Of a DNA stretch of 39,996 nucleotides, positions 3,270 through 33,945 are shown piece after piece. This DNA is from a virus. The stretch is taken from the IMG/VR virus record IMGVR_UViG_3300034523_000094, positions 1 to 39,996 of that record; one strand, given 5' to 3'. The position numbers and the translations under genes were made by a program. The number at the start of each line of letters is the position of its first letter. Positions within the stretch are counted from its first letter, which is position 1. The notes under the pieces were generated by a model that was given only the letters and a program-made list of their open reading frames with translations, did no database searches and was not told the origin of the DNA.

Positions 3270-4790
3270 ATGAACCCGCTAAGCCGCCTAATGGCGCGCC
3301 TGGGCTGGGGTGGCGAGCGCACGCCTGCCGCCGATGCCAGCACCGCACGGCGGGAGCCGACCGTCGGCCGTCGAGGCTTCAAGATGGCCAGCGCTGGCGG
3401 GCTGACGAAGGCCTGGTCGCGTCGCTCGAGTGGCGCCGATGCCAACCAGCTGATCTACGGCGACCACGAGACGCTGCGACAGCGCGCCCGCGAGCAGTCG
3501 ATCAACGCCTCGCCGCTCAAGCGCTTCTATCGCCTGCTGCGGCAGAACGTCATCGGCCCCTACGGCATCCGCCTGCAGTCAAAGGCCGTGCTGCCCGATG
3601 GCAAGCCCGACCGCATCACCCGCCGGCTGATCGAGAAGGAATGGGCCAAGTTCTGCCGCAAGGGCGTTTTCGACGTCACCGGCCGCTACAGCTTCGTTTC
3701 GTTTTCCTGGCTCTGGATCGAGACCCTGGCCCGCGACGGCGAGGTGCTTGTGCGCCTGCTGCGCAACTGGCCGAACCGTTGGGGCTTCGCGGTGCAGATC
3801 CTCGAGGCCGATCGGCTGGATCTCAACCTTAACCAGGAACTCGACAACGGCAACCGCATCCGCATGGGCGTCGAGCTCGACGCCTGGGAGCGCCCGGTCG
3901 CCTACTGGCTGCTCAAGTACCACCCCGGCGACGTCTATCACGGCCCGGTCGAGGAGAAGTACGAGCGGATCCCGGCCGACGAGCTGATCCATAGCTTCGA
4001 CCCGTGGCGCCCGCACCAGGTGCGTGGCTTCACCTGGACCCATGCCGCCGCGCTGGATCTGCACCACCTCGAGGAGTTTCGCCAGGCGACGCGGATCAAG
4101 GCCGAGCATGCGGCCAAGATCACCGGCTTCTATGAGCCCGACGCCGAATGGCTCGACCCGCCCAACGACGACGAAGACGACGTCGGTGCGATCTACGAGG
4201 AAGTCGAGGCCGGTACCGCCCGGGCGCTGCCCTACGGCTACAAGTACCGCGAGCTCAACCACAACACGCCCGGGAGCGACTTCGCCCCCTTCGTCAAAGA
4301 CACCCTGCGCAGCGCCGCCGGTGGCCTGGGGCCGAGCTACAACCGGCTTTCCAACGACCTCGAGGGCGTGAGCTTCTCGAGCCTGCGCGACGGCACGCTC
4401 GACGAGCGCGACTTCTACAAGTGCGTGCAGGAGCTGGTTATCAGCGAGCTGCTCGAGCGCCTCGGCGAAACCTGGTTCGAGTGCGCCCTGCTCAAGGGCG
4501 CCTTGCAGATCCCGCCCCGGGATCTGGCTCGCAGCAGCGAGCAGGCCTGGCAGCCACGTGGCTGGGATTGGGTCGACCCGCTGAAAGACAGCAAATCGGC
4601 CACCGAGTCGATCGGCAACCGCACCAAGTCGCGCAGTTCGTACATCCGCGCCAATGGCGACGACCCCGACGAGATTTTCGCCGAGCTGGCCGACGAGGCC
4701 GAGCGCCTGCGCGAGCTGGGTCTGCTCGCTGAACCCCAACCAACCGAGGAACCCGACGATGCCAAACCCGACGGCACCGACGACGAATAG
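3270..4790 (+). CDS. Portal protein, lambda (gpB) family
   Basis: 506 aa, in the position after terminase and gpW, with an acidic C-terminus. A GAGG RBS precedes the ATG. Confidence 0.8.
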   Translation: MNPLSRLMARLGWGGERTPAADASTARREPTVGRRGFKMASAGGLTKAWSRRSSGADANQLIYGDHETLRQRAREQSINASPLKRFYRLLRQNVIGPYGIRLQSKAVLPDGKPDRITRRLIEKEWAKFCRKGVFDVTGRYSFVSFSWLWIETLARDGEVLVRLLRNWPNRWGFAVQILEADRLDLNLNQELDNGNRIRMGVELDAWERPVAYWLLKYHPGDVYHGPVEEKYERIPADELIHSFDPWRPHQVRGFTWTHAAALDLHHLEEFRQATRIKAEHAAKITGFYEPDAEWLDPPNDDEDDVGAIYEEVEAGTARALPYGYKYRELNHNTPGSDFAPFVKDTLRSAAGGLGPSYNRLSNDLEGVSFSSLRDGTLDERDFYKCVQELVISELLERLGETWFECALLKGALQIPPRDLARSSEQAWQPRGWDWVDPLKDSKSATESIGNRTKSRSSYIRANGDDPDEIFAELADEAERLRELGLLAEPQPTEEPDDAKPDGTDDE

Positions 4791-6669
4791 CGGCGCCCCG
4801 GCGCCCGTTCTGCGGCAGATCGAGGGCAAGCAGCTGCAGCGCTCGCTCGCCGTCGATCTGTCGACCATCGACAAGGAGGCCCGCACCGTCGAGGTCGCGG
4901 TTTCCAGCGAATACCCGGTGCGCCGGTGGTTCGGCATGGAAGTGCTCGACCACTCCGACGAGGCGGTCGATCTGACCCGCTTGCGCGCCGGCGCGCCCTT
5001 CCTGCTGCAGCACAACAGCTGGAACGGGCAGATCGGCGTCGTCGACGAGGCCTGGCTCGACAGCGATCGCAAGTTGCGCGCGCGGATCCGCTTCTCGCGC
5101 AGCGAACGCGCCGAGGAGATCTGGCAGGACGTGATCGACGGCATCCGCCGGAATATCTCGGTCGGCTACATCCCCGTCGAAATGGTCCTCGAGCGCAGCG
5201 AAAACGGCCTCGATCACTACCGCGTCACCCGCTGGGAGCCCTACGAGGTTTCCAGCGTTTCCATCCCTGCCGACCCGACCGTCGGGGTAGGGCGTTCCGC
5301 CCCTGAAACACCCTCTCACACCATCACCATTCGAGGTATCGAAATGCCCCAGCCGAACGATCCGAACGACGGTCAGCGCACCAATCCGACCGCCACCACC
5401 ACCACCAACGGCACCGACCCGGTAGCCCTCGAGCGTCAGCGCGTGGCCGACCTGATGGCCCTCGGCGATCAGTTCCCGGCGCACCGCGCGCTGGCGTCCG
5501 AAGCCATCACCGCCGGTCACTCGGTTGACCAGTTGCGCGCGCAGCTGCTCGAGCGCCACAAGCCTGTCGCGACCAGCACCCCGCCGGCGCAGCCAGGCGC
5601 CCGCGAGCTGCCGAAATTCACGCAGGACGTATCGGCTCGCGCCATGGGCCTGACCGAGCGGGAAGTCGGCGAATACTCGCTGATGCGCGCCATGAACGCC
5701 TACGCCGAGAACGACTGGAGCAAGGCGGGCCTCGAGCGCGAGGTCAGCATCGCCCTGGGCGACCACCTCAAGAAGGAAGCGCGCGGTTTCTACGTGCCGC
5801 ACGACCTGCTGCTCGAGGGCTACAAACGCGGCATGAACAAGACCGAAGCCGGCAAGGGTGGCGAGCTGGTGGCCACTGACCTGCGCCTCGACCAGTTCGT
5901 CGACATCCTGCGCAACCGCACCGTGATGGCCAAGCTGGGCATGCGCATGCTGGGCGGCCTGGTGGGCGACCTGGACATTCCGAAGAAGCTCAACGGCAGC
6001 AACTTCTACTGGCTGGGCGAGGGTGAGAACGTCACCCCGAGCGACTTCGACCTGACCACCATCCCGCTGTCGCCGAAGACCATCGCCGGCGCGATCCCGG
6101 TCACCCGCAAGCTGCGCAAGCAGGCCAGCCGCTCGATCGAGTCGCTGATCATCGGCGACCTGGTCGACGGCATCGGCGTGGCCATCGACCTGGCGCTGCT
6201 GACCGGCACCGGCGTCGATAACCAGATCCTCGGCCTGCTGAACATGGCCGGCGTTCCGACCCTCAACTTCCCGAGCACCGGGATTGATTGGGATACGGTC
6301 GTCGACATGGAGACCAACGCGGCGACTTTCAACGTCGACAGCGGCTCGCTGGCCTACCTGACCAGCGTCACGCAGCGCGGCAAGGCCAAGAAGAAGGAAG
6401 TCTTCGCCGGTACCGGCGAGCGCCTGTGGGACAAGGGTAACGAGGTCAACGGCTACCACGCCGAGGCCACCAACCAGATGCCGGCCGACAAGTGGGTCTA
6501 TGGCGACTTCTCGCAGATGATCCTCGGCATGTGGGGCGTGCTGGACCTCAAGCCCGACCCGTATGCCCTGGCTGGCAGCGACGGCCTGATGCTGCGCGTA
6601 TTCCAAGACGTCGACGCCGGCATCCGCCGCAAAGAGGCCTTCTGCATCGCCAACAAGGCAGCAGGCTAA
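4759..6669 (+). CDS. Prohead protease (HK97 / U35-S78 type) and HK97-fold major capsid protein in one reading frame
   Basis: The N-terminal part (EARTVEVAVSSEYPV...WEPYEVSSVSIPADP) looks like an HK97-family prohead protease. The C-terminal part (GGELVATDL...FVDILRNRTVMAKLG...IPVTRKL...) looks like an HK97-family capsid protein. There is no stop codon between them. An in-frame internal ATG at 5344 has a GAGG RBS. Confidence 0.75.
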   Translation: MPNPTAPTTNSGAPAPVLRQIEGKQLQRSLAVDLSTIDKEARTVEVAVSSEYPVRRWFGMEVLDHSDEAVDLTRLRAGAPFLLQHNSWNGQIGVVDEAWLDSDRKLRARIRFSRSERAEEIWQDVIDGIRRNISVGYIPVEMVLERSENGLDHYRVTRWEPYEVSSVSIPADPTVGVGRSAPETPSHTITIRGIEMPQPNDPNDGQRTNPTATTTTNGTDPVALERQRVADLMALGDQFPAHRALASEAITAGHSVDQLRAQLLERHKPVATSTPPAQPGARELPKFTQDVSARAMGLTEREVGEYSLMRAMNAYAENDWSKAGLEREVSIALGDHLKKEARGFYVPHDLLLEGYKRGMNKTEAGKGGELVATDLRLDQFVDILRNRTVMAKLGMRMLGGLVGDLDIPKKLNGSNFYWLGEGENVTPSDFDLTTIPLSPKTIAGAIPVTRKLRKQASRSIESLIIGDLVDGIGVAIDLALLTGTGVDNQILGLLNMAGVPTLNFPSTGIDWDTVVDMETNAATFNVDSGSLAYLTSVTQRGKAKKKEVFAGTGERLWDKGNEVNGYHAEATNQMPADKWVYGDFSQMILGMWGVLDLKPDPYALAGSDGLMLRVFQDVDAGIRRKEAFCIANKAAG

Positions 6670-6739
6670 CCGAACCTGAAAGCGGGCAGGTAGGGGGCTC
6701 CGGCCCCCGTTTTTGACCGCATCACAAGGAACCAACCCC

Positions 6740-7177
6740 ATGAGCAAGCAACTGCCCACGAGTTACATCGTGGTGACGCTGCTCGGCCTGAGCGTGCACG
6801 GCGAGTTTGTACCCGCCGAAACCACGCTCAAGGTCGACCGCGCGCTGCGCAACGACTGGATCGGCTCGAAGCTGGCCCGCGACGCCACCGACGAGGAGGT
6901 CGCCGCCTATCGCGCCGAGCAGGGCGACGACGGCCTCGACGGGCTGGACGAGCAGCGCACCACCCTCGAGGCCGAAATCGAGCGCCTGCAGGCGCGCAAG
7001 AACGAGCTGGCCGGTGATCTCAAGGCGCTGGAAAGCGACCTCGAGGAGTTCGGCAAGCAACGCGACGAGCTGACCGAGGAGGTCAAGGAGCTGACCGCCG
7101 AAGTCGCCGCGCTGGAAAAGGCCAAGGCTGCAGCCGCTGAGCCGGCCGCCACCGACGCCAAGGCCGGCAAGAAGTGA
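6740..7177 (+). CDS. Hypothetical head-associated coiled-coil protein
   Basis: An AAGGA RBS precedes the ATG at 6740. The C-terminal half is E/K/L/A-rich (coiled-coil-like). It follows the capsid gene. Confidence 0.5.
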   Translation: MSKQLPTSYIVVTLLGLSVHGEFVPAETTLKVDRALRNDWIGSKLARDATDEEVAAYRAEQGDDGLDGLDEQRTTLEAEIERLQARKNELAGDLKALESDLEEFGKQRDELTEEVKELTAEVAALEKAKAAAAEPAATDAKAGKK

Positions 7178-7551
7178 TCGGCGCCGACGACCTCGACGCG
7201 CTCTACGACCCCGACGAGTTCGGCTGCACCGTGCAGGTGATCGAGCCGGGGCGGGAGGCGCGCACGGTCAACGGCATGCTGGGAGCGCCGGCCCGTTCGG
7301 GTCGGCAGTACCGCTCGGGCGTGGATCCGAACGCGGCGAACCTGCGCGTGAAAGGCGACCAGGTGCTGCTGCAGATGGCCACCCCGGCGGTGCCGCAGGA
7401 CCGGACGGCGAAGATCGTCGTCGACGGGGTCGAGTATTCCGTCGGCAACGTCGAGCCGCTCGGCCGCCTGCGCTCGCTGTTAACCCTCGTGCCGTATGGC
7501 AACCGAGCAGCACCTGCAGGGGAGCGGGGCAGATGGCAGGCTTCGAGCTGA
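7174..7551 (+). CDS. Putative head-tail connector / head completion protein
   Basis: Assigned from its position in the head-tail joining block, translational overlap with its neighbours (GTGA), and size of 125 aa. Confidence 0.35.
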   Translation: MIGADDLDALYDPDEFGCTVQVIEPGREARTVNGMLGAPARSGRQYRSGVDPNAANLRVKGDQVLLQMATPAVPQDRTAKIVVDGVEYSVGNVEPLGRLRSLLTLVPYGNRAAPAGERGRWQASS

Positions 7552-8057
7552 ACTTCGAGGTGGACGGCTGGGCGTCGGTCGACAAGGCCATCGCCGATAT
7601 GCCGCGCCGCCTCGACCTGGCCGCCGCCCGCGCCTTGCGCAAAACGGCGCTGTGGCTGCGCACGCACAGTTCGCGGGAGATCTCCCGCGAGCTGCGCATC
7701 ACGCAGAGCCCCATCCGCCACCGTTACCAGATCCACAGCCGATCCACCGCCAAGGAGGTGAAGCTGTGGGTCGGTCTGCGACCGATCAGCGTGCATTACC
7801 TGGGCACGCCCAAGCAGACCCCGACCGGCGTCGCGGTCGGTCATCGCCAATACGACGCCGCCTTCATATCACCGATGCGATCGACGCAGCGCCTGGTTTT
7901 CCGGCGCAAGGGCCGCGAGCGCCTGCCGATCGAGAAGGTGACCGAGGCTTGGGAAGGCGAAGGCCTCGGCGCCCTCGAGCGCTGGGAGCGCCGCGCCAAC
8001 AATCGATTCATGGAGCTGTTCGAGCAGGAGGCCCGTTATGTCCTCGAGGCCGCTTAA
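7533..8057 (+). CDS. Tail completion protein, lambda gpZ-like
   Basis: ELNFEVDGW...ALRKTALWLRTHSSREISRELRI...RQYDAAFI...LVFRRKGRERLPIEKV resembles the remembered layout of lambda minor tail protein Z. Confidence 0.45.
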   Translation: MAGFELNFEVDGWASVDKAIADMPRRLDLAAARALRKTALWLRTHSSREISRELRITQSPIRHRYQIHSRSTAKEVKLWVGLRPISVHYLGTPKQTPTGVAVGHRQYDAAFISPMRSTQRLVFRRKGRERLPIEKVTEAWEGEGLGALERWERRANNRFMELFEQEARYVLEAA

Positions 8058-9508: not shown

Positions 9509-10506
9509 GCATGCTTATTCCGGGGCTCAACCAGCTGGCCGAGCCCGAGATCGTCAAGGTCGAAACCTTCGAGACGCTGCTCGCCGAGTTCAAGGCCGAG
9601 GTGCTGGCCTATGTGCAGGCCCGCGACCCCGAGAAGGCCGCACGCCTGGCCGAGGCGCTGGAGAACGACAGCGACCTGCTGGCCATGATCCTGCAGGCCT
9701 TCACGCTGCGCCTGCAGAGCCACGAGCGAAAATACAACGCGCGAATCAAGCAAATGCTGGCCTGGTGGGCAGAGGGCTCGAACCTCGACGCCCGCGCCGC
9801 CGACATGGGCCTCGAGCGCCGCGTCGTCACCCCCGGCGACCCCGACGCCTTCCCGCCGGTACCCGCTGAGGTCGAGCTGGACGAGGATCTGCGCCTGCGC
9901 TACTACCTGGCGCCTCACGCGCCGGCCGCTGGCTCGAGGCTGCACTACCGCCGCGAGGCGCTGACCCTCGGCGACCGCGCCGCCGTATCGATCACTGCCC
10001 CCGAGCCCGGCACCGTGGTGGTTACGTACACCCTGCAGCCCGACGCCCTCGCCGCACAGGTGAAGGACGTCCGCCCCGTGCGCACAGCACCCGGTGTCGT
10101 CACGGTGTGGGTGCTTAGCCGCGCCGCTCGCGGCGAGCCGAGCGAGGCCCTGCTCGACGCCCAGCGCGCCCACTTCGCGCGCGAGGACGTTTCGCCCGAG
10201 ACGGACACGGTCGACATTCGCCCGGCAGTCATCGTCGGGTACCAGATCCGCGCCACCGCCTACATCAACCCCGGCCCTGACGCCGAGATCACACAGCGGT
10301 CGGCTGTCAGCGCCCTGGCTGAATACGCCGCCGCGCAGCATCGCCTGAAAGGGTACGTCGACCCTGATCACATTCGCGCCCGCCTGATCGGCGCCGGCGC
10401 GGTGCGCCTGGATCTGCTCGAGCCCTTGGCGCCCATCGCCTGCAGCGATGGCGAGGCCCCTTTCTGCGACTCGATCGCGATTGATATCAAGGTGCTGAGC
10501 CCATGA
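9505..10506 (+). CDS. Baseplate protein J
   Basis: Collinear similarity to remembered P2 gpJ (LNQLAEPEIV..., VSITAPEPGTVVVTY, EDVSPETDTVDIRPAVIVGYQIRATAYINPGPD, AAQHRLKG). GTG at 9505 or ATG at 9511. Confidence 0.85.
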   Translation: MSMLIPGLNQLAEPEIVKVETFETLLAEFKAEVLAYVQARDPEKAARLAEALENDSDLLAMILQAFTLRLQSHERKYNARIKQMLAWWAEGSNLDARAADMGLERRVVTPGDPDAFPPVPAEVELDEDLRLRYYLAPHAPAAGSRLHYRREALTLGDRAAVSITAPEPGTVVVTYTLQPDALAAQVKDVRPVRTAPGVVTVWVLSRAARGEPSEALLDAQRAHFAREDVSPETDTVDIRPAVIVGYQIRATAYINPGPDAEITQRSAVSALAEYAAAQHRLKGYVDPDHIRARLIGAGAVRLDLLEPLAPIACSDGEAPFCDSIAIDIKVLSP

Positions 10507-11612
10507 CTCTATTGCCGGCCAACAGCTCGCTGCTCGAGCTCGCTCTCGACACGGTCGCGGGCGAGCTGATCGACCGCATCGCCCCGCCGTTCCCGGCGCT
10601 GATGAATGCCGCCGAGACGCCGGCCGAGTTCCTGCCGTATCTCGCCGCCGACCGCGGCATCACTCACTGGCCCGCCACGGCCCCGGAGGCGCAGAAGCGC
10701 GCCGCCGTGGCGGGCGCGTGGGAGGTCAAGCGCCTCGCCGGAACTCGTCACGCGATCAAGCGCGCACTGGCAGCGGCAGGCTATGACGTGCTGTCGATCG
10801 AGGGCGGCACCGCCTACCAGCGCGCCTGGCAGGCGCTTGGCGGACTGACGCTTGACGGCAGCTGGCAACTGGACGGCACGCCGACGCTCACCCCGCCGGA
10901 CGGCAGTGCGACCCTGATGCGCGCGACGCCGCTCGACCACTGGTCGAAGTACGCCATTCACATCAACACCGCCGACGGCGCCTGGTCACGCGAGCAGCAG
11001 AGCAAGATCCGCGCGCTGGCCGAGGAGCATGGGCCGCTGCGTAGCGAGCTGGTGGCAATTGTCGCGGCCATCCGCGCCCACCTCGGCCGCCCCGTCCGCG
11101 CCACCCGCCTTGCTCAACAAGTCCGCATCCGCCTCGCCAAATGCCAGCGCGTGCAACCCCTTCAGCGCCGCACGCTCGACGGCTGCTGGTCGCTGGGCGG
11201 CGAGACCGCGCCGCGGCACCTGGACGGCACGCAGCAGCTCGACGGCAGCACTCGGCTCGACGGCCTGCGCCTGGTCGGCAGCTGGTCGTGGGCAGAGGGG
11301 CACGCCCGCATGGGTCAGCGCCTGCGCCTGCAGCTGCGCGCCACCGTCGGTACCGGCTCGCCGGCTCAGCCGGCGGACCTCGCGCCGCGCTACCTGCCGC
11401 TCGACGGCAGCGCCCGGCTTGACTCGCTCACGCTCGGCGGCTGGCCGCTCGACGAAGGCATCACCCTCGGCGATGCCGCGCTCGACCGCCTCGGCCTGCA
11501 CAAGCTCGACGGCACCTGGCAGCTCGGCGCCCGGCCTTCCGCGCCGCGCGTGCGCGCCCGCATCACCGCTCGCATCCGCCAGCACGGCACAACTCAGCAG
11601 GTAGCCCTATGA
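10503..11612 (+). CDS. Tail protein I (P2 gpI-like) with a C-terminal extension containing LDG repeats
   Basis: The N-terminus LLPANSSLLELALD...EFLPYLAADRGI is the gpI signature. The C-terminal half carries repeated LDGxWxLxG motifs. Confidence 0.75.
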   Translation: MTLLPANSSLLELALDTVAGELIDRIAPPFPALMNAAETPAEFLPYLAADRGITHWPATAPEAQKRAAVAGAWEVKRLAGTRHAIKRALAAAGYDVLSIEGGTAYQRAWQALGGLTLDGSWQLDGTPTLTPPDGSATLMRATPLDHWSKYAIHINTADGAWSREQQSKIRALAEEHGPLRSELVAIVAAIRAHLGRPVRATRLAQQVRIRLAKCQRVQPLQRRTLDGCWSLGGETAPRHLDGTQQLDGSTRLDGLRLVGSWSWAEGHARMGQRLRLQLRATVGTGSPAQPADLAPRYLPLDGSARLDSLTLGGWPLDEGITLGDAALDRLGLHKLDGTWQLGARPSAPRVRARITARIRQHGTTQQVAL

Positions 11613-11979: not shown

Positions 11980-14547
11980 ATGCCCCTGACCCCCAGCGCC
12001 AACCCGCAGCTGAGCGAAAGCATCCCCCAGCTGACCACCAACAGCGTCGCGCACCCGGACACCTGGAACCCGGTGCACCAGGCGCTGCTGGATAACGACG
12101 CCTACCTCGCGCGCGTGCTCGAAGAAACCGGCGCGACGCTTGGCGAGCAGGTCGCCACCCTCGATCAGCGTCTTGACGGCGTAGAGGCCACCAGCTCAGT
12201 GGCCGTGCAGCGCGCCGTCAGCCTCGACTGGCTGTACCGCGGCAACGCGATCAACTTCGAGATGTTCACCCCCGGTTATACGTTGATCGATATCGATCCG
12301 GTGGCCGTGGTGCAGGGCATAAATGGGGATGACTCGCTCGACGTCGCCGACACCAGCGCGCTGCGCGCCGGCGACTACTACGTGCTGACCGATCCCGCCG
12401 CCCTGGACGAAGAGGGCAATCCGGCGCCGGTATCCGCCCTGGTGCAGATCGCCAACATCCTCTCCGGCCAGCGCGTGCGCCTGACCGCCAACCTGGCGCG
12501 TGACTGGAGCGCCACCGCCACGCTGTCGCGCTCCAGCCTCGCAGTACAGGGCGCTGCGCTGGCCCGCGGCGAGGTCGGCGATATCTACCTGACCAAGGCG
12601 ATCAACATCGGCACCGACAGCGACGGTGGCGCCGTGGTGATTCGCCGCTCGCTCAGTGCTGCCGAGGCACGGCTCTACTACCGCGATGCCTACCAGGGCA
12701 CATGGAAGGAGTGCGGCTGGTCCATGCGCCGCAGCGGTGGCAGCATCCCGGCCGGCATGGCGGACTACGAATACATCCTGCCGATGCGCGGCGACGGCTG
12801 GTTGCGGCTGGACATTGAGGGTGAGGCGCTGACCCTCTCGCACATCGTCGCCCTGGGCACGCCCACCGGCCTCGGCGGCTTCCTCAACCCGGAGCTGGCC
12901 CCAAGCACACCGGCCATCGCCTCGCCGGCGGACGCCTCGGTCGGCATCATGGAGCGCCCGACGCTGGCCCTGGACAACTACACCAGCCCCGCCGGCAATG
13001 CCCAGCAGGCCGTGCAGTTCCAGATCTCGACCGACGCCCTGTTCGCCACCGTGCTGCACGACTCCGGTGCCCTGGGCTCCGGCCTGTCGTACCGCGTCCC
13101 GGCTGAGGTGCTGCAGGCCGGCAATACCTACTACCTGCGCGGTCGCGTCCAGGACGTCGCCGGCCTCTGGTCCGACTGGTCCGCCGTGACCAGCTTCGCC
13201 ACCGCTGCCGATTTCATCTACGTGGTCGCGCCGACCGTCACCGGCCCGGTCAGCAATGCGCTGGACGTACCCGAGCAGCCAACGCTGGCCAGCTCCTCGT
13301 TCACCGTCTCCGGCGGCGAAGACACGCACGCCGCCAGCCAGTGGCAAATCCGCACTGCCGGCGGCACCTTCAGCGCCCCGGTCTGGGACAGCGGCACCGA
13401 TGCGGTAAACCTGCTGACAGCGGTGGTCCCGGCGGGCGTGCTGCAAGCGGGCGAAACCGGCTACTACGTGCGCGTGCGCCACCAGGGCGTCACCAAGGGC
13501 TGGTCGGAATGGTCCGGCGAGAGCAAGTTCACCACCAAGGCCGCGTTCGCCACCATCGTGGGCATCGCGCTGCTGTCGACCGGCGGCGGCTCCGGCACCT
13601 GGGCGCGCATCGACGAGAACGGCGCCACCAAGGTGACCGACTCGGCATTCTTCAGCAGCCACCAGACCTACGGCCAGATCCAGGACGTCACCATCGACGG
13701 CCAGGCCATGGTCAAGATCCCCGCGTTTTACGTGAAGGCCGGCACCATCGCTGCCGGCCCCAACGCCGGCAAGCGCGCCTGGTGGATCAGCGACCAGCCC
13801 GCCGCGGGCTTCACCCTGCATCCGGCGTTCATGCGCGCCGGCGCGCCCATCGGCCAGTTCTGGGTCGGCAAGTACCAGGGCACGGCGGACGGCACCAAGT
13901 TGGGCTCCAAGCCGGGCGTCACGCCGCTGGTGTCGATCGACTTCCCGACGATGCAGGGTCGCGCCGCCGCGCGGAACGTCTCTGGCGTGTCGGGCTTCCA
14001 GCTGTGGGACTACTACCAGCTCAGCGCCATTCAGCTGCTGGCCATGATCGAGATGGGTGGTGCCAACAGCCAAGCCCTGATCGGTCGCGGCCATGTCGAC
14101 AACTCGCCGTCTGGCGTACAGGTAGTCGACCACCCCACCGTGGCGCAAGCCACCTGGCGCGGCATCGTCGGCCTGTGGGGCAACGTCTGGCAGATGGTCG
14201 ACGGCCTGCGCACCGATGCGGCGAAACGCTACGAGATCTGGGACAAGCACGGCAACAAGGGCTACATCAACACCGGCGCCACCGCCCCGGCCAACGGCTG
14301 GACCGTGAGCCTGTCGGCCAACGCCGGCGCTGATTTCGACCTCGGCCCGTTGTTCGTGCCAGCCACCACCGACAGCGCCGAAGCCAACGGCACCACCGCC
14401 GACCAGAGCTACGCGAACGCCAACTGCGTGGCGTATCACGGTGGCCACTACGGCGTCGGCTCGTACGCCGGCCTGTTCTATCTGTACGTCTCCACCGCCG
14501 CGTCGTACGCGATCCCGTACATCGGCGGCCGCCTCGCAAAGGTGTGA
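11980..14547 (+). CDS. Tail fibre / receptor-binding protein. It has two tandem FN3-like domains and a C-terminal C-type-lectin (FGE-sulfatase-like) domain. It is the DGR target protein.
   Basis: 855 aa. The C-terminus ...CVAYHGGHYGVGSYAGLFYLYVSTAASYAIPYIGGRLAKV is encoded by the variable repeat. The upstream segment WRGIVGLWGNVWQMVDG is typical of Mtd-like and FGE-type CLec domains. Confidence 0.85.
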   Translation: MPLTPSANPQLSESIPQLTTNSVAHPDTWNPVHQALLDNDAYLARVLEETGATLGEQVATLDQRLDGVEATSSVAVQRAVSLDWLYRGNAINFEMFTPGYTLIDIDPVAVVQGINGDDSLDVADTSALRAGDYYVLTDPAALDEEGNPAPVSALVQIANILSGQRVRLTANLARDWSATATLSRSSLAVQGAALARGEVGDIYLTKAINIGTDSDGGAVVIRRSLSAAEARLYYRDAYQGTWKECGWSMRRSGGSIPAGMADYEYILPMRGDGWLRLDIEGEALTLSHIVALGTPTGLGGFLNPELAPSTPAIASPADASVGIMERPTLALDNYTSPAGNAQQAVQFQISTDALFATVLHDSGALGSGLSYRVPAEVLQAGNTYYLRGRVQDVAGLWSDWSAVTSFATAADFIYVVAPTVTGPVSNALDVPEQPTLASSSFTVSGGEDTHAASQWQIRTAGGTFSAPVWDSGTDAVNLLTAVVPAGVLQAGETGYYVRVRHQGVTKGWSEWSGESKFTTKAAFATIVGIALLSTGGGSGTWARIDENGATKVTDSAFFSSHQTYGQIQDVTIDGQAMVKIPAFYVKAGTIAAGPNAGKRAWWISDQPAAGFTLHPAFMRAGAPIGQFWVGKYQGTADGTKLGSKPGVTPLVSIDFPTMQGRAAARNVSGVSGFQLWDYYQLSAIQLLAMIEMGGANSQALIGRGHVDNSPSGVQVVDHPTVAQATWRGIVGLWGNVWQMVDGLRTDAAKRYEIWDKHGNKGYINTGATAPANGWTVSLSANAGADFDLGPLFVPATTDSAEANGTTADQSYANANCVAYHGGHYGVGSYAGLFYLYVSTAASYAIPYIGGRLAKV
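14438..14540 (+). repeat. DGR variable repeat (VR), encoding the last ~35 codons of the tail-fibre gene
   Basis: Hand alignment to 15866..15968 gives 103 bp with 12 differences. Every difference lies at an adenine of the downstream copy. Confidence 0.9.
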
Positions 14548-14574
14548 TGAATCCTGTCACCTGAGTCATGTAAC

Positions 14575-14601
14575 GGGGCCAGCCCGCCGAGCGGGCGCCC
14601 C
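14575..14601 (+). promoter_or_regulatory. GC-rich hairpin 35 nt downstream of the VR: GGGGC(ca)GCCCGC-cga-GCGGGCGCCCC. Candidate DGR target-recognition hairpin and/or terminator.
   Basis: 11 complementary base pairs with a 2-nt bulge and a 3-nt loop, followed only by TTT. Confidence 0.5.
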
Positions 14602-14618
14602 TTTAGGAGTTTTGCAAA

Positions 14619-15191
14619 ATGATGAAGATCGAAAACGCCGTGCTGATCGTGGGCGCTGTCAGCGTCAACCTGCCGCTGCTGGGCACCGATGCGGTGGTGC
14701 GCGCCTGGCGTGTGCCTTCCGAGTACCGTGATAACGGCCTGTTCGTTGCGATTGATCAGCCGGGCCAGCCCGGCGAGGTCCCCGCCTGCGATCCGCAGCA
14801 GGCCGAATACTTGGGCGCGCTGGACTACCCCGCCGCCGAGACCGAAGCGCTGCGCGACGCCAAGGCCCGCAAGCTCGCTGAGATCAACCAGCACTGCGAG
14901 GCCTCGCTCGCCGCCCTGGCGGCGCCGTACCCCGAGGGCGAGGTCAAGAGCTGGCCGCAGCAAGTCAAGGAAGCCGAAGCCCTGGCGCTCGATGCCGATA
15001 CCCCCGTGCCGCTGCTCGATGCCATCGCCGCCGCCCGTGGGCTGACCGTCATCGACCTGGCTGGCCGCGTCGCGGCCAAGATGCAGGCCTACGCCGAGCA
15101 CAGCGGCGCACTGATCGGCCGCCGCCAGGCCGCAGAAGATCAGATCGAGGCCGCCACCACCCCGGCCGAGCTGGAGGGCATCACATGGTGA
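14619..15191 (+). CDS. Tail fibre assembly / chaperone-like protein
   Basis: It lies directly after the fibre gene with an AGGAG RBS. The C-terminal pattern KLAEINQHCEASLAALAAPYPEGEVKSWPQQVKEA resembles phage tail-fibre assembly chaperone domains. Confidence 0.45.
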   Translation: MMKIENAVLIVGAVSVNLPLLGTDAVVRAWRVPSEYRDNGLFVAIDQPGQPGEVPACDPQQAEYLGALDYPAAETEALRDAKARKLAEINQHCEASLAALAAPYPEGEVKSWPQQVKEAEALALDADTPVPLLDAIAAARGLTVIDLAGRVAAKMQAYAEHSGALIGRRQAAEDQIEAATTPAELEGITW

Positions 15192-15493
15192 AGCGCCTGC
15201 GCATGATCGGCCTGTGGCTGCTCTGCGCCCTGGCCGGGATCGTCGCCAGCGCCTGGATGCTGCTGGCCGTACTGGCCGGCAGCGACCGCGCCTGGAAACT
15301 CGCCATCGCGCACGACCAGCTGGCGAACGCCGCGTTCGGCGGCGACGAGGACGAGACCATCAGCTCGCGCGCCGCCAAGGCCGCGAAAGGCGGCGAGCGG
15401 TGGGGCTGCGTGCTCTGCAAGCTGCTCGACAAGCTCGACCCTGGCCACTGCGAACGCAGCATCGAGCACGACGAGGGGAAGCCGCTGCCGTGA
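15185..15493 (+). CDS. Small hypothetical membrane protein lying between the DGR target gene and avd
   Basis: GGAGGG RBS. N-terminal hydrophobic helix IGLWLLCALAGIVASAWMLLAVLAG. Its start overlaps the upstream gene and its stop overlaps avd (GTGA). Confidence 0.5.
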   Translation: MVKRLRMIGLWLLCALAGIVASAWMLLAVLAGSDRAWKLAIAHDQLANAAFGGDEDETISSRAAKAAKGGERWGCVLCKLLDKLDPGHCERSIEHDEGKPLP

Positions 15494-15843
15494 GTGATGC
15501 GCACCTGGTCCTGCTGACCAAGCTCGAGGAGCTGGACGCCTACACGCACACCGTGCTGCACCAGTTCCCGAAACTGGAGCGGCATCTGCTCTGCGCCGAC
15601 CTGCGCGCCACCATCAACCGTCTGCTGCGGCTGACGGTGGTCGCCTGGAAGCGCAAGCAGAAGACCGCCGCGCTGTTCGACCTGGACGTCGAGCTGGAGG
15701 TCTGTCGCGGGCTGATCCGCAAGGCGCACCGCTTGAGCTACATCAGCACCAAGCGCCTCGATGTTTGGATGCGCCACGTCAACGAGATCGGCCGCATCGT
15801 CGGCGCCTGGATCAAGCACGAGGGCGCCGCAACACGCAAATAG
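15490..15843 (+). CDS. avd: DGR accessory variability determinant (Avd)
   Basis: 117-aa basic helical protein. The C-terminal VNEIGRIVGAWIKHEG matches the remembered Bordetella phage bAvd segment IAEVGRILGSWIARV. It sits immediately upstream of the TR. The GTG start is coupled to the upstream stop codon. Confidence 0.8.
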   Translation: MSDAHLVLLTKLEELDAYTHTVLHQFPKLERHLLCADLRATINRLLRLTVVAWKRKQKTAALFDLDVELEVCRGLIRKAHRLSYISTKRLDVWMRHVNEIGRIVGAWIKHEGAATRK

Positions 15844-15855
15844 CAACATTGGGCA

Positions 15856-16134
15856 ATGGCTTATTACGGTGGCAACTACGGCAACGGCTCGAACGCCGGC
15901 CTGTTCTATCTGAACGTCAACAACGCCGCGTCGAACGCGAACACGAACATCGGCGGCCGCCTCGCAAACGATTACCGCCAGAAGGCGCCAGGCTCACGGG
16001 CCGGCGTCCAGTGCGTTTCCTTTGGGGCCTTTGTCCAGACCGTGTTGTCGAAGATTTACAGGGCGTCGCGGCTAGTAGCCTCGGCCAATGCGGCGGCGCC
16101 TGCCCTATCCCTCGCATGAGGTAAGGTTTCTGCT
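15856..16134 (+). ncRNA. Expected non-coding DGR template RNA (TR plus the spacer leading into the RT gene)
   Basis: Inferred from DGR biology: TR plus ~165 nt of spacer precede the RT start. The ORF 15856..16119 here is simply the TR read in frame. Confidence 0.5.
15866..15968 (+). repeat. DGR template repeat (TR)
   Basis: Contains nine AAC codons in the VR reading frame. 91 of 103 positions are identical to the VR, and all 12 mismatches are TR adenines. The last 20 bp, ATCGGCGGCCGCCTCGCAAA, are invariant. Confidence 0.9.
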
Positions 16135-17241
16135 GTGCCTGTTACAACCGCTGGCCTATGGGGCCAGATCACCAGTTTCGAGAATCTTTACGCCGCCTAC
16201 CTGGAAGCCCGGCGCGGCAAGCGCGAGCGCGGCTCGGTGCTGCGCTTCTCTGCCAACGTTGAGGAGAATCTGGTCAACCTGCAGAATCACCTGCTGTGGA
16301 AGAGCTGGCGACCCGGCAAACAGCGCGAATTCGTTGTAAAGGAGCCTAAGCTGCGGCTGATTCAGGCGCCGCCCTTCGCCGATCGCGTCATTCATCACGC
16401 CCTTGTTCGCGTGGTCGAGCCGCTGTTCGAGCGCAAATTCATCCATGACTCCTACGCCTGTCGCGTCGGCAAAGGCACCCAAGCGGCTGTCGCCAGGGCG
16501 CAGCACTTCCTGCGGGTGGCCAAGCGCAACCACGGCGACGGCTGCTACGTACTCAAGGCCGACATCAGCCGCTTCTTTTCCAGCATCCGCCACGCCTCGC
16601 TGCTGCGCGAGATCGAGCGCACCGTGCGCGACCCCGACGCCCTCTGGCTGTGGCGCCAGATCATCGCAGGCTACGGCCACGAAGCTGGCATCGGCTTGCC
16701 GGTCGGTGCGCTGACCAGCCAGCTCGGCGCCAACGTCCTGCTGAACCACCTCGACCACGTTGCGAAGGATCAGCTGGGCATCAAGTATTACGTGCGCTAC
16801 ATGGACGACTTCATCGCCGTACTGCCGAACAAGGCTGCTGCCGCCGAGGCCATGCGCGCGCTATCCGCCACGGCCAACAGCCTATGCCTGGCGATGAACC
16901 CCAAGACCGCGATCCATCCCTGGCAGCGCGGTCTCGACTTCTGTGGCTACCGCATCTGGCCAACCCACATCCTGCCGCGCAAACGCAACATCAAACGCGC
17001 CAAAGCATCGTTCCGGCAGCTGGCCACCCAATACCGCGCCGGCCTGATCGATCAGGAGCACGTTCGCCAACGCGTGAACAGCTTCCTGGCCTACAGCAAG
17101 CACTGCCAGGCGCAGAGGACGGTGGAGGGGGTGCTGGCGGATCTGATTCTTACGCGATCGTCTGGAGGTCTCGATGCTCCTGTTCCTCATGCTCGCGCTT
17201 CGCCGCCGCTGGCAGCGAGCGCACTACCGGCTCCCGCCTGA
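16135..17241 (+). CDS. DGR-type reverse transcriptase
   Basis: Carries the RT motifs: YVLKADISRFFSSI, LPVGALTSQLGANV (the DGR-typical [ILV]GxxxSQ), YVRYMDDFIAV (YMDD), and LDFCGYRI. It is adjacent to the TR. GTG start. Confidence 0.9.
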   Translation: MPVTTAGLWGQITSFENLYAAYLEARRGKRERGSVLRFSANVEENLVNLQNHLLWKSWRPGKQREFVVKEPKLRLIQAPPFADRVIHHALVRVVEPLFERKFIHDSYACRVGKGTQAAVARAQHFLRVAKRNHGDGCYVLKADISRFFSSIRHASLLREIERTVRDPDALWLWRQIIAGYGHEAGIGLPVGALTSQLGANVLLNHLDHVAKDQLGIKYYVRYMDDFIAVLPNKAAAAEAMRALSATANSLCLAMNPKTAIHPWQRGLDFCGYRIWPTHILPRKRNIKRAKASFRQLATQYRAGLIDQEHVRQRVNSFLAYSKHCQAQRTVEGVLADLILTRSSGGLDAPVPHARASPPLAASALPAPA

Positions 17242-17293
17242 CCGATGGCCACCCGGCCACCAGGGCCTGCTGCACACCTACCGCAACCCACCG

Positions 17294-17312
17294 CCGCGAA
17301 AGCGGTTTTTTT
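17294..17312 (+). terminator. Weak intrinsic terminator after the DGR cassette (CCGC-GAAA-GCGG followed by T7)
   Basis: A 4-bp stem with a GNRA loop followed by a seven-T run. Confidence 0.35.
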
Positions 17313-17330
17313 ACGCCTGGAGCACTCCGC

Positions 17331-17537
17331 ATGCCTGCACTTCGTAAGAGCTACACCGTCCTCGTCGCATTCCCCAAGGGGGGCGGCCATTGGGCGAACA
17401 AGGGCGAAAAGCTCGACCTGATGGACGTCGAGGCGCAGCAGCTGCTGCGCGCCGGCCGCATCAAGCTGACCGCCACCGAAACCGAGGCCGAGGCGCCCGC
17501 CGCCGCTGCCACCAAGAAAACCGCCGCTAAGGAGTAA
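17331..17537 (+). CDS. Small hypothetical protein upstream of the tail sheath gene
   Basis: The ATG at 17331 is in frame with the end of ORF 16650..17537. 68 aa. It ends 3 nt before the sheath gene start. Confidence 0.4.
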   Translation: MPALRKSYTVLVAFPKGGGHWANKGEKLDLMDVEAQQLLRAGRIKLTATETEAEAPAAAATKKTAAKE

Positions 17538-17539
17538 CC

Positions 17540-18706
17540 ATGGCCGAGGTAACCAATTTCGAGCACAACGGCGTTTCGGTCGAGACGACCGAGTCGCCGG
17601 AGGCAATGGGCGGGCTTGGCGATAATGTCGTCGGCCTGGTCGGTACCGCGCCGAACGCGGATATGAGCGTGCCGCGCAATGCGCCGTTTCGCATCAACAG
17701 CTACACCCTGGCTGCGCTGCTGGATCCGACCGGCGCCGAGGCGGGCACGCTCTACCAGGTGGTGCACCAGATCCTCAAGGTGGTGAAGGTGCCGATCTAT
17801 GTCGTGGTCGTCGAGGAGGGCGCCCTCGAGGCCGACACGCTGAGCAACGTGATCGGCGGCATCGACCTCGAGTCGGGCCAGAAAACCGGCCTGCAGGCGC
17901 TGACCACCTGCCAGGAGCTGCCGACCATCATCGGCGCCCCGGGCTTCTCCGACGCGCAGGCGGTGCACAGCGAGCTGGCCAGCCTGGGCAAGCGGATCCG
18001 CGCGCGCTTCGTCTTCGACGGGCTCGACGTGCCGGTCTCCGGCCAGGTGACCAACTCCGAGTCGATCGGCGGTGCCGAGCTGGGTTACGACCGGGGCTAC
18101 ATGGTCCACCAGATGCCGGCGGTCTACTCCAAGGCGGCCAAGGCCAACGTGTTCCTGCCGCCCTCGAGCCTGGCGATCGCCGCGCTGGCAGCGGTCAAGC
18201 AGTGGGAAAGCCCGGGCAACCAGGTGACCTACGCGGCCGACGTCTCGCGCGTGGTCGAGTACAACATCCTCGACAAGTCGACCGAGGGCGACCTGCTCAA
18301 CCGCTACGGCGTGAGCTACTACGCGCGCACCACCCTGGGCGGCTTCTCGCTGATCGGTAACCGCACGATCACCGGCAAGTTCATCAGCTACGTGGGCCTC
18401 GAGGACGCCATCACCCGCAAGCTGGTCAAGGCGGCGCAGAAGGTCATGGCCAAGAACCTGACCAAGTCGTTCATGGAGCAGGAGGTCAAGCGCATTGACG
18501 ACTGGCTGCAGACGCTGGTCGCCGACGAGACCATCCCGGGCGGCAAGGTGTACTTGCACCCCGAGCTGAACAGCGTCGAGAAGTACAAAAACGGCACTTG
18601 GTACCTGTGCATCGATTACGGCCGCTATGCCCCGAACGAGCACATGATTTACCAGCTCAATGCGTCTGACGCGATCATCGAAGAATTCCTGGAGGACGTC
18701 CTCTGA
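17540..18706 (+). CDS. Contractile tail sheath protein
   Basis: 388 aa with an AAGGAG RBS. It is followed by tube, chaperone and tape measure genes in P2/Mu order. The sequence is sheath-like. Confidence 0.8.
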   Translation: MAEVTNFEHNGVSVETTESPEAMGGLGDNVVGLVGTAPNADMSVPRNAPFRINSYTLAALLDPTGAEAGTLYQVVHQILKVVKVPIYVVVVEEGALEADTLSNVIGGIDLESGQKTGLQALTTCQELPTIIGAPGFSDAQAVHSELASLGKRIRARFVFDGLDVPVSGQVTNSESIGGAELGYDRGYMVHQMPAVYSKAAKANVFLPPSSLAIAALAAVKQWESPGNQVTYAADVSRVVEYNILDKSTEGDLLNRYGVSYYARTTLGGFSLIGNRTITGKFISYVGLEDAITRKLVKAAQKVMAKNLTKSFMEQEVKRIDDWLQTLVADETIPGGKVYLHPELNSVEKYKNGTWYLCIDYGRYAPNEHMIYQLNASDAIIEEFLEDVL

Positions 18707-27679: not shown

Positions 27680-27998
27680 AAGCGGACGCGCCAGCGTCCA
27701 ACCTTGTCCGCCTGAATAGCCCCGTCCTTTCTCCCGTGGCCGCAGCCCAGCAGCGGCGCGGGTTTCCCGCGCCATAAACAAGCAGCGCGAAGCGCTGGTC
27801 CTTTTGGTGCATGCCCTCTGCCGCGTCCTTTCTGACCATCTAGCCCGCTGCCGCATCCTTTCCTTGCTGGTGGTTGAGCAGTCGCCGCCCCTTCGCGCTC
27901 GCCTACTTTGCCGCATGGCAAAGGGTGTATGCCTGCGCAGCATCCATACACCCTATACCCTAACAAGTGCATACACCCTCACCCCTAGCACAAGATAG

Positions 27999-28070
27999 GG
28001 CCGCAGGTGTATGCACCCCTGCCCCATTCTATACGTATAGAATGGGGCAGGGGTGCATACACCTGCGGCC
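27999..28070. repeat. Perfect 72-bp palindrome (36-bp arms, centre TATAC|GTATA). Candidate telomere resolution site (telRL).
   Basis: The arms were checked base by base. The core CCATTCTATACGTATAGAATGG resembles the remembered N15 telO CCATTATACGCGCGTATAATGG. It lies 135 bp upstream of the protelomerase gene. Confidence 0.8.
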
Positions 28071-28204
28071 ATATCTACCACTGCGCGAGTTCGTGCCCTA
28101 TGGCTTGGGGTGTATGCGATGAGCGAGTAGGGCTTGTGGTGCATAGTTGTAATGTGTAGAATCTGCGCTAGGGTTTACGGTGTATGCCTAAAGGAGGGCG
28201 AGCC

Positions 28205-29770
28205 ATGGGTGGGGAATCAAGACAGAAGGTCGAGCTGGGCGAACTGATCGAGCAGCTGCTAAAGGACGTGCGGGCGATCGACGGCAATGCGGAGCTGAGC
28301 AGGGGCGACAAGACCAAGCGTCTGACCCGGCTCGCGGCCAGGCTGAAAAACACGCTGTTCGAGGACCGCCGGCGCAAGGAGGAGGACAAGCTCGCGGCGT
28401 CGAGTTATCGCCGGTACCTGACCACCATCCGCAAGGCGGTCACCGCGCAGAACTGGCGGCACCACTCGCTCGAGGAGGCGATCGGCCGGATGGCCAAGCG
28501 GCACCCGCGCTGGGCCGAGCAGCTCGAGGCGATGGGCGCGCATGCGCAGATCAGCGAGGTGCGCCTCGCCCACCGCGACCTGCTGGCCGAGGTGCGCCGC
28601 GCTGGCGACTCTGACGCCTACGACGATATCCGCGCGATGAAGCTCGACCACGAGATCATGCGCCACCTGACGCTGCCAGCCGCGACCAAGGCCGACCTGG
28701 CCGACGAGCAGCTCGAGCGCATCGAGGAGCGGTCGACGAATACGGTCGAGATCAATTACCACTGGCTTATGGCGACGATCGACGGCCTGCTGAGCCAGCA
28801 GCAATTGCGCGCCGATGGGTCGGCCGCGCCCTACTTCTCGCACCTGGCGCTGGGGCTGGCGCTGGCCACCGGGCGGCGCGAGATCGAGGTGCTCAAGCTG
28901 GGCCGCTTCAAGAAGGTGGGCGAGTTCGAGCTCGAGTTTTCCGGCCAGGCCAAGCGGCGCGAGGGCGTCGACTACAGCGAGACCTTCCGCATCTATAGCC
29001 TGGTCAGGGCCGACGAGGTGCTCGAGGCCTTCGCCAAGCTGCGCGCGCTGCCCGAGGTGCTCGAGCTGCAGCACCTGTCGAACGTCGAGGTGAACCGCCG
29101 CGTGGCCAAGACGCTGAACACGCTGACCAAGCGCGTTTTCGGCAGCGAGGAGCGGGTTTTCAAGGACAGCCGGTCAATATGGGCGCGGATCGTTTTCGAG
29201 CGCTACTTCGGCCAGGATGCGCGCTGGAAGAAGGTCAACGAGGACGTCTTCTGGCAGGAAATGCTCGGGCACGAGGGGATGAAGTCGCAGATCCACTACA
29301 AGGCCTTCAAGATCGACTATGTCGAGCCGGTGGCCACCGCCGGGGCGGTACCGGGCAAGTGGGCGAACCGCCTCGAGGCGCTGCAGGCGCTCGACGAGCA
29401 CGAGCGGATCCGCGCGAGCTCCTCGCTGTACCGCATTCACCAGTGGGTGAAAGAGACCGTGAAGGCCGCGCCCGAGGCGCGGATCTCGCAGAAGGCGATC
29501 GCCACCAACGTGGGCAGCTACCGGCCGAACATCAAGGAATATCTCGAGATCGCCGCCGAGGCGCTCGCCACGCCGAACCATTCGCTAGAGGCGGTCGCGC
29601 TCGAGGTGCCCGACCAGGTCGCCAAGGCGAAGCCGCGAATGGTGGCGCATCTGCAGGAAAGTGGGCTCTATCGGGCAACCGCAACGATCAACGGGGTGGT
29701 GGTCGCAACGGCCGAACACGCCGACCGCATGACCGCCTTGGCCGAGGCCTTCAAGAAGGCAGGCGGTTAG
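28205..29770 (+). CDS. tel: Protelomerase (TelN/TelK family)
   Basis: Collinear with remembered N15 TelN: KVELGELIEQLLKDVRAIDG...GDKTKRL..ARLKNTLF, FSGQAKRRE, VFKDSRSIWARIVFERYF...RWKKVNEDVFWQEMLGHEG...QIHYKAFKI (Tyr nucleophile context). An AAGGAGGG RBS precedes the ATG at 28205. Confidence 0.9.
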   Translation: MGGESRQKVELGELIEQLLKDVRAIDGNAELSRGDKTKRLTRLAARLKNTLFEDRRRKEEDKLAASSYRRYLTTIRKAVTAQNWRHHSLEEAIGRMAKRHPRWAEQLEAMGAHAQISEVRLAHRDLLAEVRRAGDSDAYDDIRAMKLDHEIMRHLTLPAATKADLADEQLERIEERSTNTVEINYHWLMATIDGLLSQQQLRADGSAAPYFSHLALGLALATGRREIEVLKLGRFKKVGEFELEFSGQAKRREGVDYSETFRIYSLVRADEVLEAFAKLRALPEVLELQHLSNVEVNRRVAKTLNTLTKRVFGSEERVFKDSRSIWARIVFERYFGQDARWKKVNEDVFWQEMLGHEGMKSQIHYKAFKIDYVEPVATAGAVPGKWANRLEALQALDEHERIRASSSLYRIHQWVKETVKAAPEARISQKAIATNVGSYRPNIKEYLEIAAEALATPNHSLEAVALEVPDQVAKAKPRMVAHLQESGLYRATATINGVVVATAEHADRMTALAEAFKKAGG

Positions 29771-33934: not shown

Positions 33935-33945
33935 GATGTTCCTTT

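Follow-up and report, generated by a model that had tools for sequence, protein, structure and literature searches.

A diversity-generating retroelement in the tail module of a temperate Stutzerimonas phage

The DNA analysed here, hereafter the window, is a stretch of 39,996 nucleotides that covers positions 1 to 39,996 of the viral record IMGVR_UViG_3300034523_000094. Among the genes of a P2-type tail module, it carries the parts of a diversity-generating retroelement (DGR): a target gene ending in a variable repeat (VR), the accessory gene avd, a template repeat (TR), a structured spacer and a reverse transcriptase (RT) gene. DGRs have been on record since 2002, and large surveys of genomes and metagenomes have catalogued them. 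We conclude, with a probability of about 0.93, that the region is a complete DGR within the P2-type tail module of a temperate Stutzerimonas phage and that it operates by canonical mutagenic retrohoming. The two repeats differ exclusively at template adenines, and sister prophages with the same RT protein carry different VRs. A first-pass annotation, made from the letters of the sequence, had already pointed to the repeat pair; its claims are taken up where the results bear on them.

Adenine-specific repeat pair and turnover of the variable repeat

VR and TR were compared in a computed ungapped alignment at an offset of 1428 bp. Over the 103 nt, there are 12 differences. All of them lie at adenines of the TR and none at a C, G or T, as the first-pass annotation had read from a hand alignment. 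From TR to VR, the substitutions are A to T (7), A to C (4) and A to G (1). The TR contains 26 adenines within the 103 nt, and the hypergeometric probability that 12 random mismatches would all fall on A is 6.3e-9. A count of 22 adenines, proposed earlier for the variable part, is correct for the span 15874-15949, from the first to the last adenine-containing variable codon. An independent repeat finder returned the same pair as 14429-14540 and 15857-15968 (112 nt, 88% identical). The two non-adenine mismatches described just 5' of the repeat are real (14433, G versus T; 14437, C versus T). No second VR was found in the window when both strands were scanned with an adenine-masked TR. The same bias is seen outside the window: related loci, which supply 19 VR/TR pairs, have 170 mismatches in all, of which 167 fall on TR adenines.

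The VR corresponds to codons 820-854 of the 855-codon target, that is, to the 3' end of the gene. The nine AAC codons were said to lie in the reading frame of a fibre gene. They are indeed in the frame of the open reading frame (ORF) 11980-14547, at residues 823-847, and all nine are changed in the VR, to CAC, GTC, TAC, TAC, TCC, ACC, TAC, ATC and TAC; the accompanying change of ACG to CCG was also recovered. All but one of the TR adenines (25/26) occupy codon position 1 or 2, and no substitution of an A can produce a stop codon. The repertoire had been put at more than 10^11 sequences. This arithmetic holds (15^9 x 4 = 1.5e11), and the number rises to ~1e13 once the TAC, TAT and ATC codons are also counted. 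Thus, two defining features of DGRs are present: differences restricted to TR adenines, and an AAC-rich VR at the 3' end of its target, built so that stops cannot arise. Together with the neighbouring Avd and DGR-type RT, the adenine-only mismatches and in-frame AAC codons support the earlier view that the pair bears the signature of adenine-specific mutagenic retrohoming.

Close relatives provide a natural comparison. The exact RT protein is present on seven public contigs. Two of them, the sister prophages L080 and L081, also carry the target and are ~95.5% identical to the window at the nucleotide level. In L081, the TR is identical to that of the window and the VR is unlike the window's; its 14 differences from the TR comprise 13 at adenines and one other, which is synonymous. 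In L080, the VR differs from both the window's and that of L081, and the TR differs from the window's at two adjacent adenines. This TR change (AAC to TCC at TR positions 9-10; L080 TR, 5732-5834) is matched by the same TC in the L080 VR (4304-4406). It is possibly a rare template alteration, the result of homing into the TR, or an assembly chimera of VR and TR. A nearly identical TR with a different VR is also found in the more distant prophage L001.

At a threshold of at least 90% identity, the target clusters with proteins from Stutzerimonas stutzeri, S. balearica, S. xanthomarina, Stutzerimonas spp. and Pseudomonas spp. (28 members); strain FeSN7 is among the carriers. We compared the 14 full-length members of this cluster. 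Of the 855 columns, the 11 with the highest entropy all correspond to codons with a TR adenine, and the scaffold residues between the variable codons are nearly all invariant. Pairwise identity is 95.3% over residues 1-819 versus 65.3% over residues 820-848. Codon 820 (TAC in the TR, CAC in the VR) is constant in this population; therefore, the tract effectively mutagenised is 15874-15949 (14446-14521 on the VR side, codons 823-848).

A constant TR, differing VRs and an entropy concentrated at TR-adenine codons show that homing has been repeated in this lineage. The first-pass annotation had argued for at least one homing event, which understates the case: sisters with an identical RT and the same or nearly the same TR have VRs that differ at TR-adenine positions. 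By this natural comparison, transfer is one-way, from a constant TR to a varying VR, and the DGR appears to be active in nature. Three metagenome contigs with the identical RT (L082, L083 and L084) start inside the TR, at positions equivalent to 15876, 15901 and 15942 of the window. Such breaks are the pattern expected if the VR/TR repeat, or a mixed VR population, disrupts assembly, as they suggest here.

Variable domain of the target protein

The target is composed of an N-terminal part without detectable homologues, Ig-like domains (~333-520) and a C-type-lectin-fold domain (~556-855). A Pfam search gave no match for the C-terminal 355 residues, even at E=10, and the fold of this part was recognised solely through PHROGs, a phmmer search of the PDB and structure prediction. 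An AlphaFold2 model of the last 300 residues, computed with a 66-sequence alignment as input, has a mean predicted local distance difference test score of 96.8. In a Foldseek search of the PDB with this domain, TaqVP from Thermus aquaticus (PDB 5vf4) ranked first (E=9e-16, TMq 0.65-0.68), followed by TvpA (Treponema), PvdO, Mtd and FGE folds. TaqVP is also found at the sequence level (phmmer E=3e-6). Both proteins have a C-type-lectin/FGE-like fold. The VR aligns with the C-terminal region that bears the motif GG.W/YG.G..AGL, and in the HMMER alignment it falls on the variable region at the C-terminus of TaqVP. The best matches in the viral structure library BFVD are phage tail-collar-fibre proteins (TM ~0.8).

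Because of the AlphaFold2 model, the Foldseek ranking, the TaqVP sequence match and the viral structure-library matches, the domain is predicted to be a C-type-lectin-fold variable domain of the TaqVP type, functionally Mtd-like and outside the Mtd family. TaqVP, the best solved relative, is nevertheless only ~20% identical in sequence. It is a stand-alone bacterial protein, whereas the domain in the window is joined to the long shaft of a phage fibre that includes Ig-like domains. The first-pass annotation had drawn a comparison with Mtd; the variable domain is far closer to TaqVP. Membership in the Mtd family in the strict sense is not supported, no sequence match to Mtd being found and the structural similarity being weak (Foldseek E=4.5e-4, TMq 0.35).

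The word "fibre" in the first-pass annotation likewise calls for a qualification. Gene order and the structural matches to tail-collar-fibre proteins agree with it, but no sequence match to a characterised fibre was found. We infer that the 855-residue target is a tail-fibre-like receptor-binding protein. Owing to the Ig_Rha78A_N domain, UniRef gives members of the target cluster the misleading name "glycoside hydrolase family 78 protein".

Elements flanking the repeats

VR and TR diverge from 14541/15969, where the VR reads ...GCAAAG GTGTGA and the TR ...GCAAAC GATTAC. Alignment of the VR 3' flanks of 11 loci from different genera shows that columns 1-19 are invariant and that conservation extends to about column 46. 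All VRs terminate in GGCCGCCTCGCAAAG GTGT(A/G)A, beyond which ~25 nt of non-coding sequence are conserved; all TRs terminate in GGCCGCCTCGCAAAC GA. These different ends are consistent with the distinction between an initiation of mutagenic homing (IMH) element at the VR and an IMH*-type element at the TR; an IMH function would be assigned by analogy with the Bordetella phage BPP-1.

A G/C-rich hairpin begins ~34 nt past the divergence point. A compensatory change, from GCCCGC/GCGGGC to GCGCGC/GCGCGC, is observed among the 11 loci. The single-sequence fold of the DNA downstream of the VR is weak (z=-1.0). The hairpin is not a typical terminator, since no T-run follows it in the relatives. By analogy with BPP-1, it is a candidate DNA hairpin or cruciform that may aid recognition of the target site.

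The spacer between TR and RT gene is 74% conserved over 17 loci, with visible compensatory changes; with RNAalifold, these affect 14 of the 46 pairs of its structure. A covariance model, R1, was built from the TR 3' end plus 150 nt. It identified 37 sites (in L010-L053), nearly all directly 5' of an RT gene, with RTs down to ~40% identity. These sites include DGRs of Desulfovibrio, Geobacter, Treponema, Synergistaceae and Bacillota. In the alignment fitted to R1, double changes affect 40 of the 43 pairs; paired cells make up 88.5%, versus 62% in shuffles and ~45% with slid partners. In a MAFFT alignment that covers the whole TR region and was not fitted to the model, 97.1% of cells are paired and 18 of 48 pairs covary. 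In addition, a long-range duplex joins a strand just upstream of the TR to a strand in the spacer; in the MAFFT alignment of 15 loci, 98.3% of its cells are paired, with compensatory changes in four of the eight pairs. An alternative, a local hairpin at 16033-16056 (helix 7 of R1), had 75% of its cells paired and was superseded by this better-supported duplex.

Single-sequence folding of TR plus spacer was no better than that of shuffles (z=+0.46). The support for the RNA and DNA structures is comparative only. Rfam contains no family for the region, either at the gathering threshold over the whole window or at an E-value threshold over 14400-16300; a single match, to the small RNA P36, was at chance level.

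Structured RNA flanking the TR is a further feature of DGRs. In BPP-1, a "cPRT Stop" duplex limits cDNA synthesis at the TR 5' end; together with a template:primer duplex and an Avd-binding stem-loop, it was described for this phage and predicted in 207 of 278 Avd-containing DGRs (Handa et al., bioRxiv 10.1101/2023.10.23.563531). The long-range duplex, the duplex between TR 3' end and spacer, and the 9-bp stem-loop of the window are candidate counterparts of these three elements. Three adenines at the TR 3' end, inside the TR/spacer duplex, are constant in the population, and variation also ends a few bases from the upstream duplex. The placement of the duplexes thus fits the data.

Cassette, proposed mechanism and phage context

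The order of genes and elements is P2 gpI-type gene, 119-residue ORF, target, 190-residue ORF, 102-residue ORF, avd, TR, spacer, RT, tail sheath and tube (Table 1).

Table 1. Features of the DGR cassette and its surroundings (window positions)
Feature	Positions	Strand	Evidence and remarks
P2 gpI-type baseplate gene (Tail_P2_I)	10503-11612		Pfam/PHROGs
DGR target gene, 855 aa	11980-14547	+	Pfam Ig_Rha78A_N; phrog_5302 "tail protein" over residues 572-853
VR	14438-14540	+	Ungapped alignment with TR; repeat finder; A-masked scan
IMH-like element	14527-14571	+	G/C-rich VR end GGCCGCCTCGCAAA plus ~30 nt conserved through and past the stop codon
G/C-rich hairpin (GGGGC..GCCCGC CGA GCGGGC GCCCC)	14575-14601	+	Centroid fold; conserved in 11 loci
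ORF, 190 aa	14619-15191	+	phrog_2618 E=4e-26; weak DUF4376 match
ORF, 102 aa	15185-15493	+	N-terminal hydrophobic segment, membrane-like
avd (accessory variability determinant), 117 aa	15490-15843	+	PF22296 bAvd E=2e-24; phrog_3206 "Avd protein of DGR" E=4e-31
Long-range duplex, 5' strand	15851-15858	+	GGGCAATG; just upstream of TR; pairs with 16029-16036
TR	15866-15968	+	Same alignment as VR; faint upstream homology as far as 15857
TR 3' end/spacer duplex	15959-15971 with 16018-16028	+	Candidate template:primer duplex; pairing invariant
TR-RT spacer, structured RNA, 166 nt	15969-16134	+	Comparative folding, covariance model
9-bp stem-loop	15984-16008	+	Bulged bases, 4-5-nt loop; candidate Avd-binding stem-loop
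Long-range duplex, spacer strand	16029-16036	+	CTTTGTCC; pairs with 15851-15858
3' stem-loop	16061-16101	+	
DGR RT, 368 aa, GTG start	16135-17241	+	PF00078; phrog_1423 E=4e-125
Tail sheath gene	17540-18706		Pfam/PHROGs
Protelomerase	28184-29770	+	Domain search; TelK/ResT catalytic, N-terminal and stirrup domains

The motif (I/L/V)GxxxSQ is diagnostic of DGR-clade RTs. The RT encoded next to the TR has this motif as well as YxDD. Its best PDB match is 8ub7, the bRT of a Bordetella phage, to which it aligns over 286 residues (E=2e-50). K29, F66, R74, I76, the catalytic Asp, VGALTSQ (IGSLTSQ in bRT) and YMDD are all kept, and with them the residues for catalysis and for adenine mutagenesis. The functions of these residues are taken from the bRT-Avd-RNA structure paper, with which the 8ub7 numbering agrees (Handa et al., bioRxiv 10.1101/2023.10.23.563531). 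The identical RT protein is misnamed "alpha/beta hydrolase" in GenBank HAN51647.1 and is called "retron-type reverse transcriptase" in IMG. The accessory protein expected of such a DGR, Avd, is encoded as well; other classes of DGR have HRDC in this role. The start of avd would be the GTG at 15490, which overlaps the stop codon of the preceding ORF, as judged from the sequence and the gene call in L081.

The 119-residue ORF located 5' of the target weakly resembles the N-terminus of a tail-collar fibre. The 190-residue ORF sits where P2 has its tail-fibre assembly gene and is syntenic in most relatives, though absent from L020. It is probably a tail-fibre-associated or assembly protein that does not belong to the DGR core. 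The 102-residue ORF has no match in Pfam and is dispensable, being present in L001, L003, L004, L006, L007 and L011 and absent from L002, L015, L016, L017 and L020. We also considered that the TR-flanking RNA, at 15835-16104 in the window, is a distinct, uncurated RNA family, extending from Pseudomonadota to Spirochaetes, Synergistota and Bacillota, and that the two ORFs are clade-specific accessory factors rather than tail genes. The proposal is tentative, and the odds run somewhat against it. If it is true, the RNA model could serve as a new marker to find and subclassify DGRs, and curation as an RNA family would be possible.

Several smaller features were noted in the cassette. A 68-residue ORF (17331-17537) between the RT and sheath genes is present in the sister contigs and has no family match. 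A terminator-like hairpin at 17290-17306, just 3' of the RT gene, was the sole notable site of this kind in the scan. Public annotations list as a gene an 87-codon ORF (15856-16119) that crosses TR and spacer; it is almost certainly an artefact of the coding sequence copied in the TR.

The cassette resembles the mtd-avd-TR-brt DGR of BPP-1 in many respects. Target with 3'-terminal VR, avd, TR, structured spacer and RT follow in the same order. TR-to-VR differences are adenine-specific and concentrated in AAC codons, and the RT aligns to bRT with its key residues kept. The G/C-rich VR 3' end with a downstream hairpin is shared, as are a duplex between TR 3' end and spacer and one between sequences upstream and downstream of the TR, both as in the bRT-Avd-RNA structure. 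In contrast to BPP-1, two extra ORFs lie between target and avd, which is why VR and TR are spaced by 1428 bp (~560 bp in BPP-1). The TR is 103 nt long, against 134 nt in BPP-1; the target domain bears only a remote likeness to Mtd, and the spacer RNAs are not recognisably homologous. The phages differ too: that of the window has a P2-type contractile tail and a protelomerase, whereas BPP-1, a Rauchvirus, has short tail fibres annotated in its record.

An RT scan of representative genomes returned 472 relatives. The closest, at 65-79% identity, are from Pseudomonas, Burkholderiaceae, Gulbenkiania, Azonexus, Castellaniella, Xylophilus, Pigmentiphaga and Comamonas. The DGR prophages L001-L017 (from Pseudomonas antarctica, Gulbenkiania, Castellaniella, Pigmentiphaga, Burkholderia and others) mostly share the order 119-residue ORF, target, 190-residue ORF, in part the 102-residue ORF, avd, TR and RT. 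TR and spacer differ little from those of the window, and conservation extends to the VR 3' end and the hairpin. These prophages differ from the window in host genus and in the N-terminal parts of their targets, which have diverged (41-67% identity). Some lack the 102-residue ORF, L016 has two VRs for one TR, and L009 and its relatives have two tandem cassettes.

Tandem cassettes are seen in the Pigmentiphaga locus L009 (3816-9020) and also in L005, L013 and L014. The first cassette of L009 has a different target with its VR at 4838-4940, a separate TR at 6010-6112 and a second RT at 6237-7352 (PF00078). The second consists of avd, then a TR (7740-7840) that belongs to the window's family, and an RT; no cognate VR for this TR was found within the fetched locus. 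More distant relatives are protelomerase-bearing contractile-tail phages, such as VP882, VP585 and VHML of Vibrio, which have a protelomerase, a palindromic target site and a DGR-type RT (39.8% identical in VP585). VHML and VP882-like phages presumably carry DGRs.

Taken together, the data are best accounted for by the following mechanism. Its parts, the adenine bias, the reading frame, the target fold, the covarying RNA and the turnover of VRs in nature follow from the results above; cis-priming, termination, the roles of the RNA elements, the function of IMH and hairpin, and tropism switching are modelled on BPP-1. The invariant TR would be transcribed with its flanks (~15850-16104), and the transcript would fold into the long-range "stop" duplex, the TR 3' end/spacer duplex and two stem-loops. 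RT (16135-17241) and Avd (15490-15843) would bind this RNA. The RT would then synthesise cDNA from the TR, misincorporating specifically opposite template adenines, and the cDNA would take the place of the VR in the 3'-terminal part of the tail-fibre-like gene. The G/C-rich IMH-like VR end, and probably also the downstream hairpin, would guide this exchange, the TR being spared because its 3' flank differs. Some 13 residues of the C-type-lectin-fold ligand-binding domain would be randomised, since all but one of the 26 TR adenines fall on the first or second base of a codon, chiefly AAC, and stops are impossible. This would allow 1e11 to 1e13 variants, and the usable host receptor would presumably change.

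Several observations speak against this picture. No sigma-70-like promoter was found in 14400-17600. The long-range duplex has one T-T mismatch in the window, where L080 has a T-A pair. No priming nucleotide was identified; the base after the spacer strand of the TR/spacer duplex is not a conserved A. R1 gave nothing significant against the BPP-1 TR/spacer, even with filters off; because the model does not detect the BPP-1 spacer, the equivalence of the two RNAs is one of architecture. The N-terminal 555 residues of the target have no match in GenBank phages, and its tail-fibre role is drawn from synteny and fold. Finally, present activity of this particular copy is presumed from natural comparison.

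Some of these points could be read differently. The DGR may be real with a target that is another virion protein or a secreted carbohydrate-binding protein, in which case diversification would not serve host-range switching. The missing match to a characterised tail fibre, the N-terminal 555 residues without phage matches and the glycoside hydrolase name given to cluster members in some databases would agree with this. The gene is nevertheless at the position of P2 gpH, after gpI and the small collar-fibre-like ORF and before the putative assembly ORF and the sheath gene; phrog_5302 is annotated as "tail protein", and the closest BFVD structures are those of tail-collar fibres. We thus regard a non-fibre target as unlikely.

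Still more improbable, in our view, is a fossil DGR whose VR was diversified in the past and whose copy is now immobile, for example through regulatory decay or a weakened stop duplex. The lack of a promoter-like site and the T-T mismatch would fit such decay. Against this, all ORFs are intact, the RT keeps its catalytic residues, relatives at ~95% identity with the same RT protein have different VRs, and three contigs with this RT break inside the TR. The notion that the TR is a decaying partial duplicate of the fibre gene 3' end, changed by ordinary point mutations, to which the 87-codon ORF gives a superficial likeness of a gene fragment, is refuted by mismatches exclusively at the adenines of one copy (P=6e-9), by the same asymmetry in relatives (167/170), by conservation of the supposedly decaying copy while the coding copy varies, and by the adjoining Avd, RT and covarying RNA. 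A complete DGR thus remains by far the best description of the region.

The host of the phage is Stutzerimonas (Pseudomonas stutzeri group). A megablast search of GenBank phages with 11980-17241 gave no match. At the protein level, the closest RT among these phages is 46% identical, and the target matches over its C-terminal third only. No named phage can therefore be assigned. Directly upstream of the protelomerase gene lies an 84-bp palindrome (27993-28076) made of two 42-nt arms without a spacer, 98% complementary. It is very probably the telomere-resolution site (telRL). Because of the protelomerase and the adjoining palindrome, the element is likely a linear-plasmid "telomere" prophage of the N15/VP882 type, with a lambda-type terminase and portal combined with the P2-type tail. 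Beside the protelomerase region, an ORF of 1304 residues on the minus strand (30077-33991) has no match in Pfam; by its position, it could encode a RepA-like replication protein of the plasmid prophage.

The element is an ordinary new addition to a well-known system and leaves the understanding of DGRs unchanged. Our literature search found no paper on a Stutzerimonas DGR. The element adds a well-documented DGR to a phage group without cultured representative, one that combines a Stutzerimonas host, a P2-type tail and a protelomerase. The alignments lend covariation support to RNA elements recently proposed from the BPP-1 cryo-EM structure. The sister prophages, with the same RT protein, the same or nearly the same TR and different VRs, constitute a natural time series, and the phage offers a convenient system for DGR-driven host-range change in an environmentally important genus.

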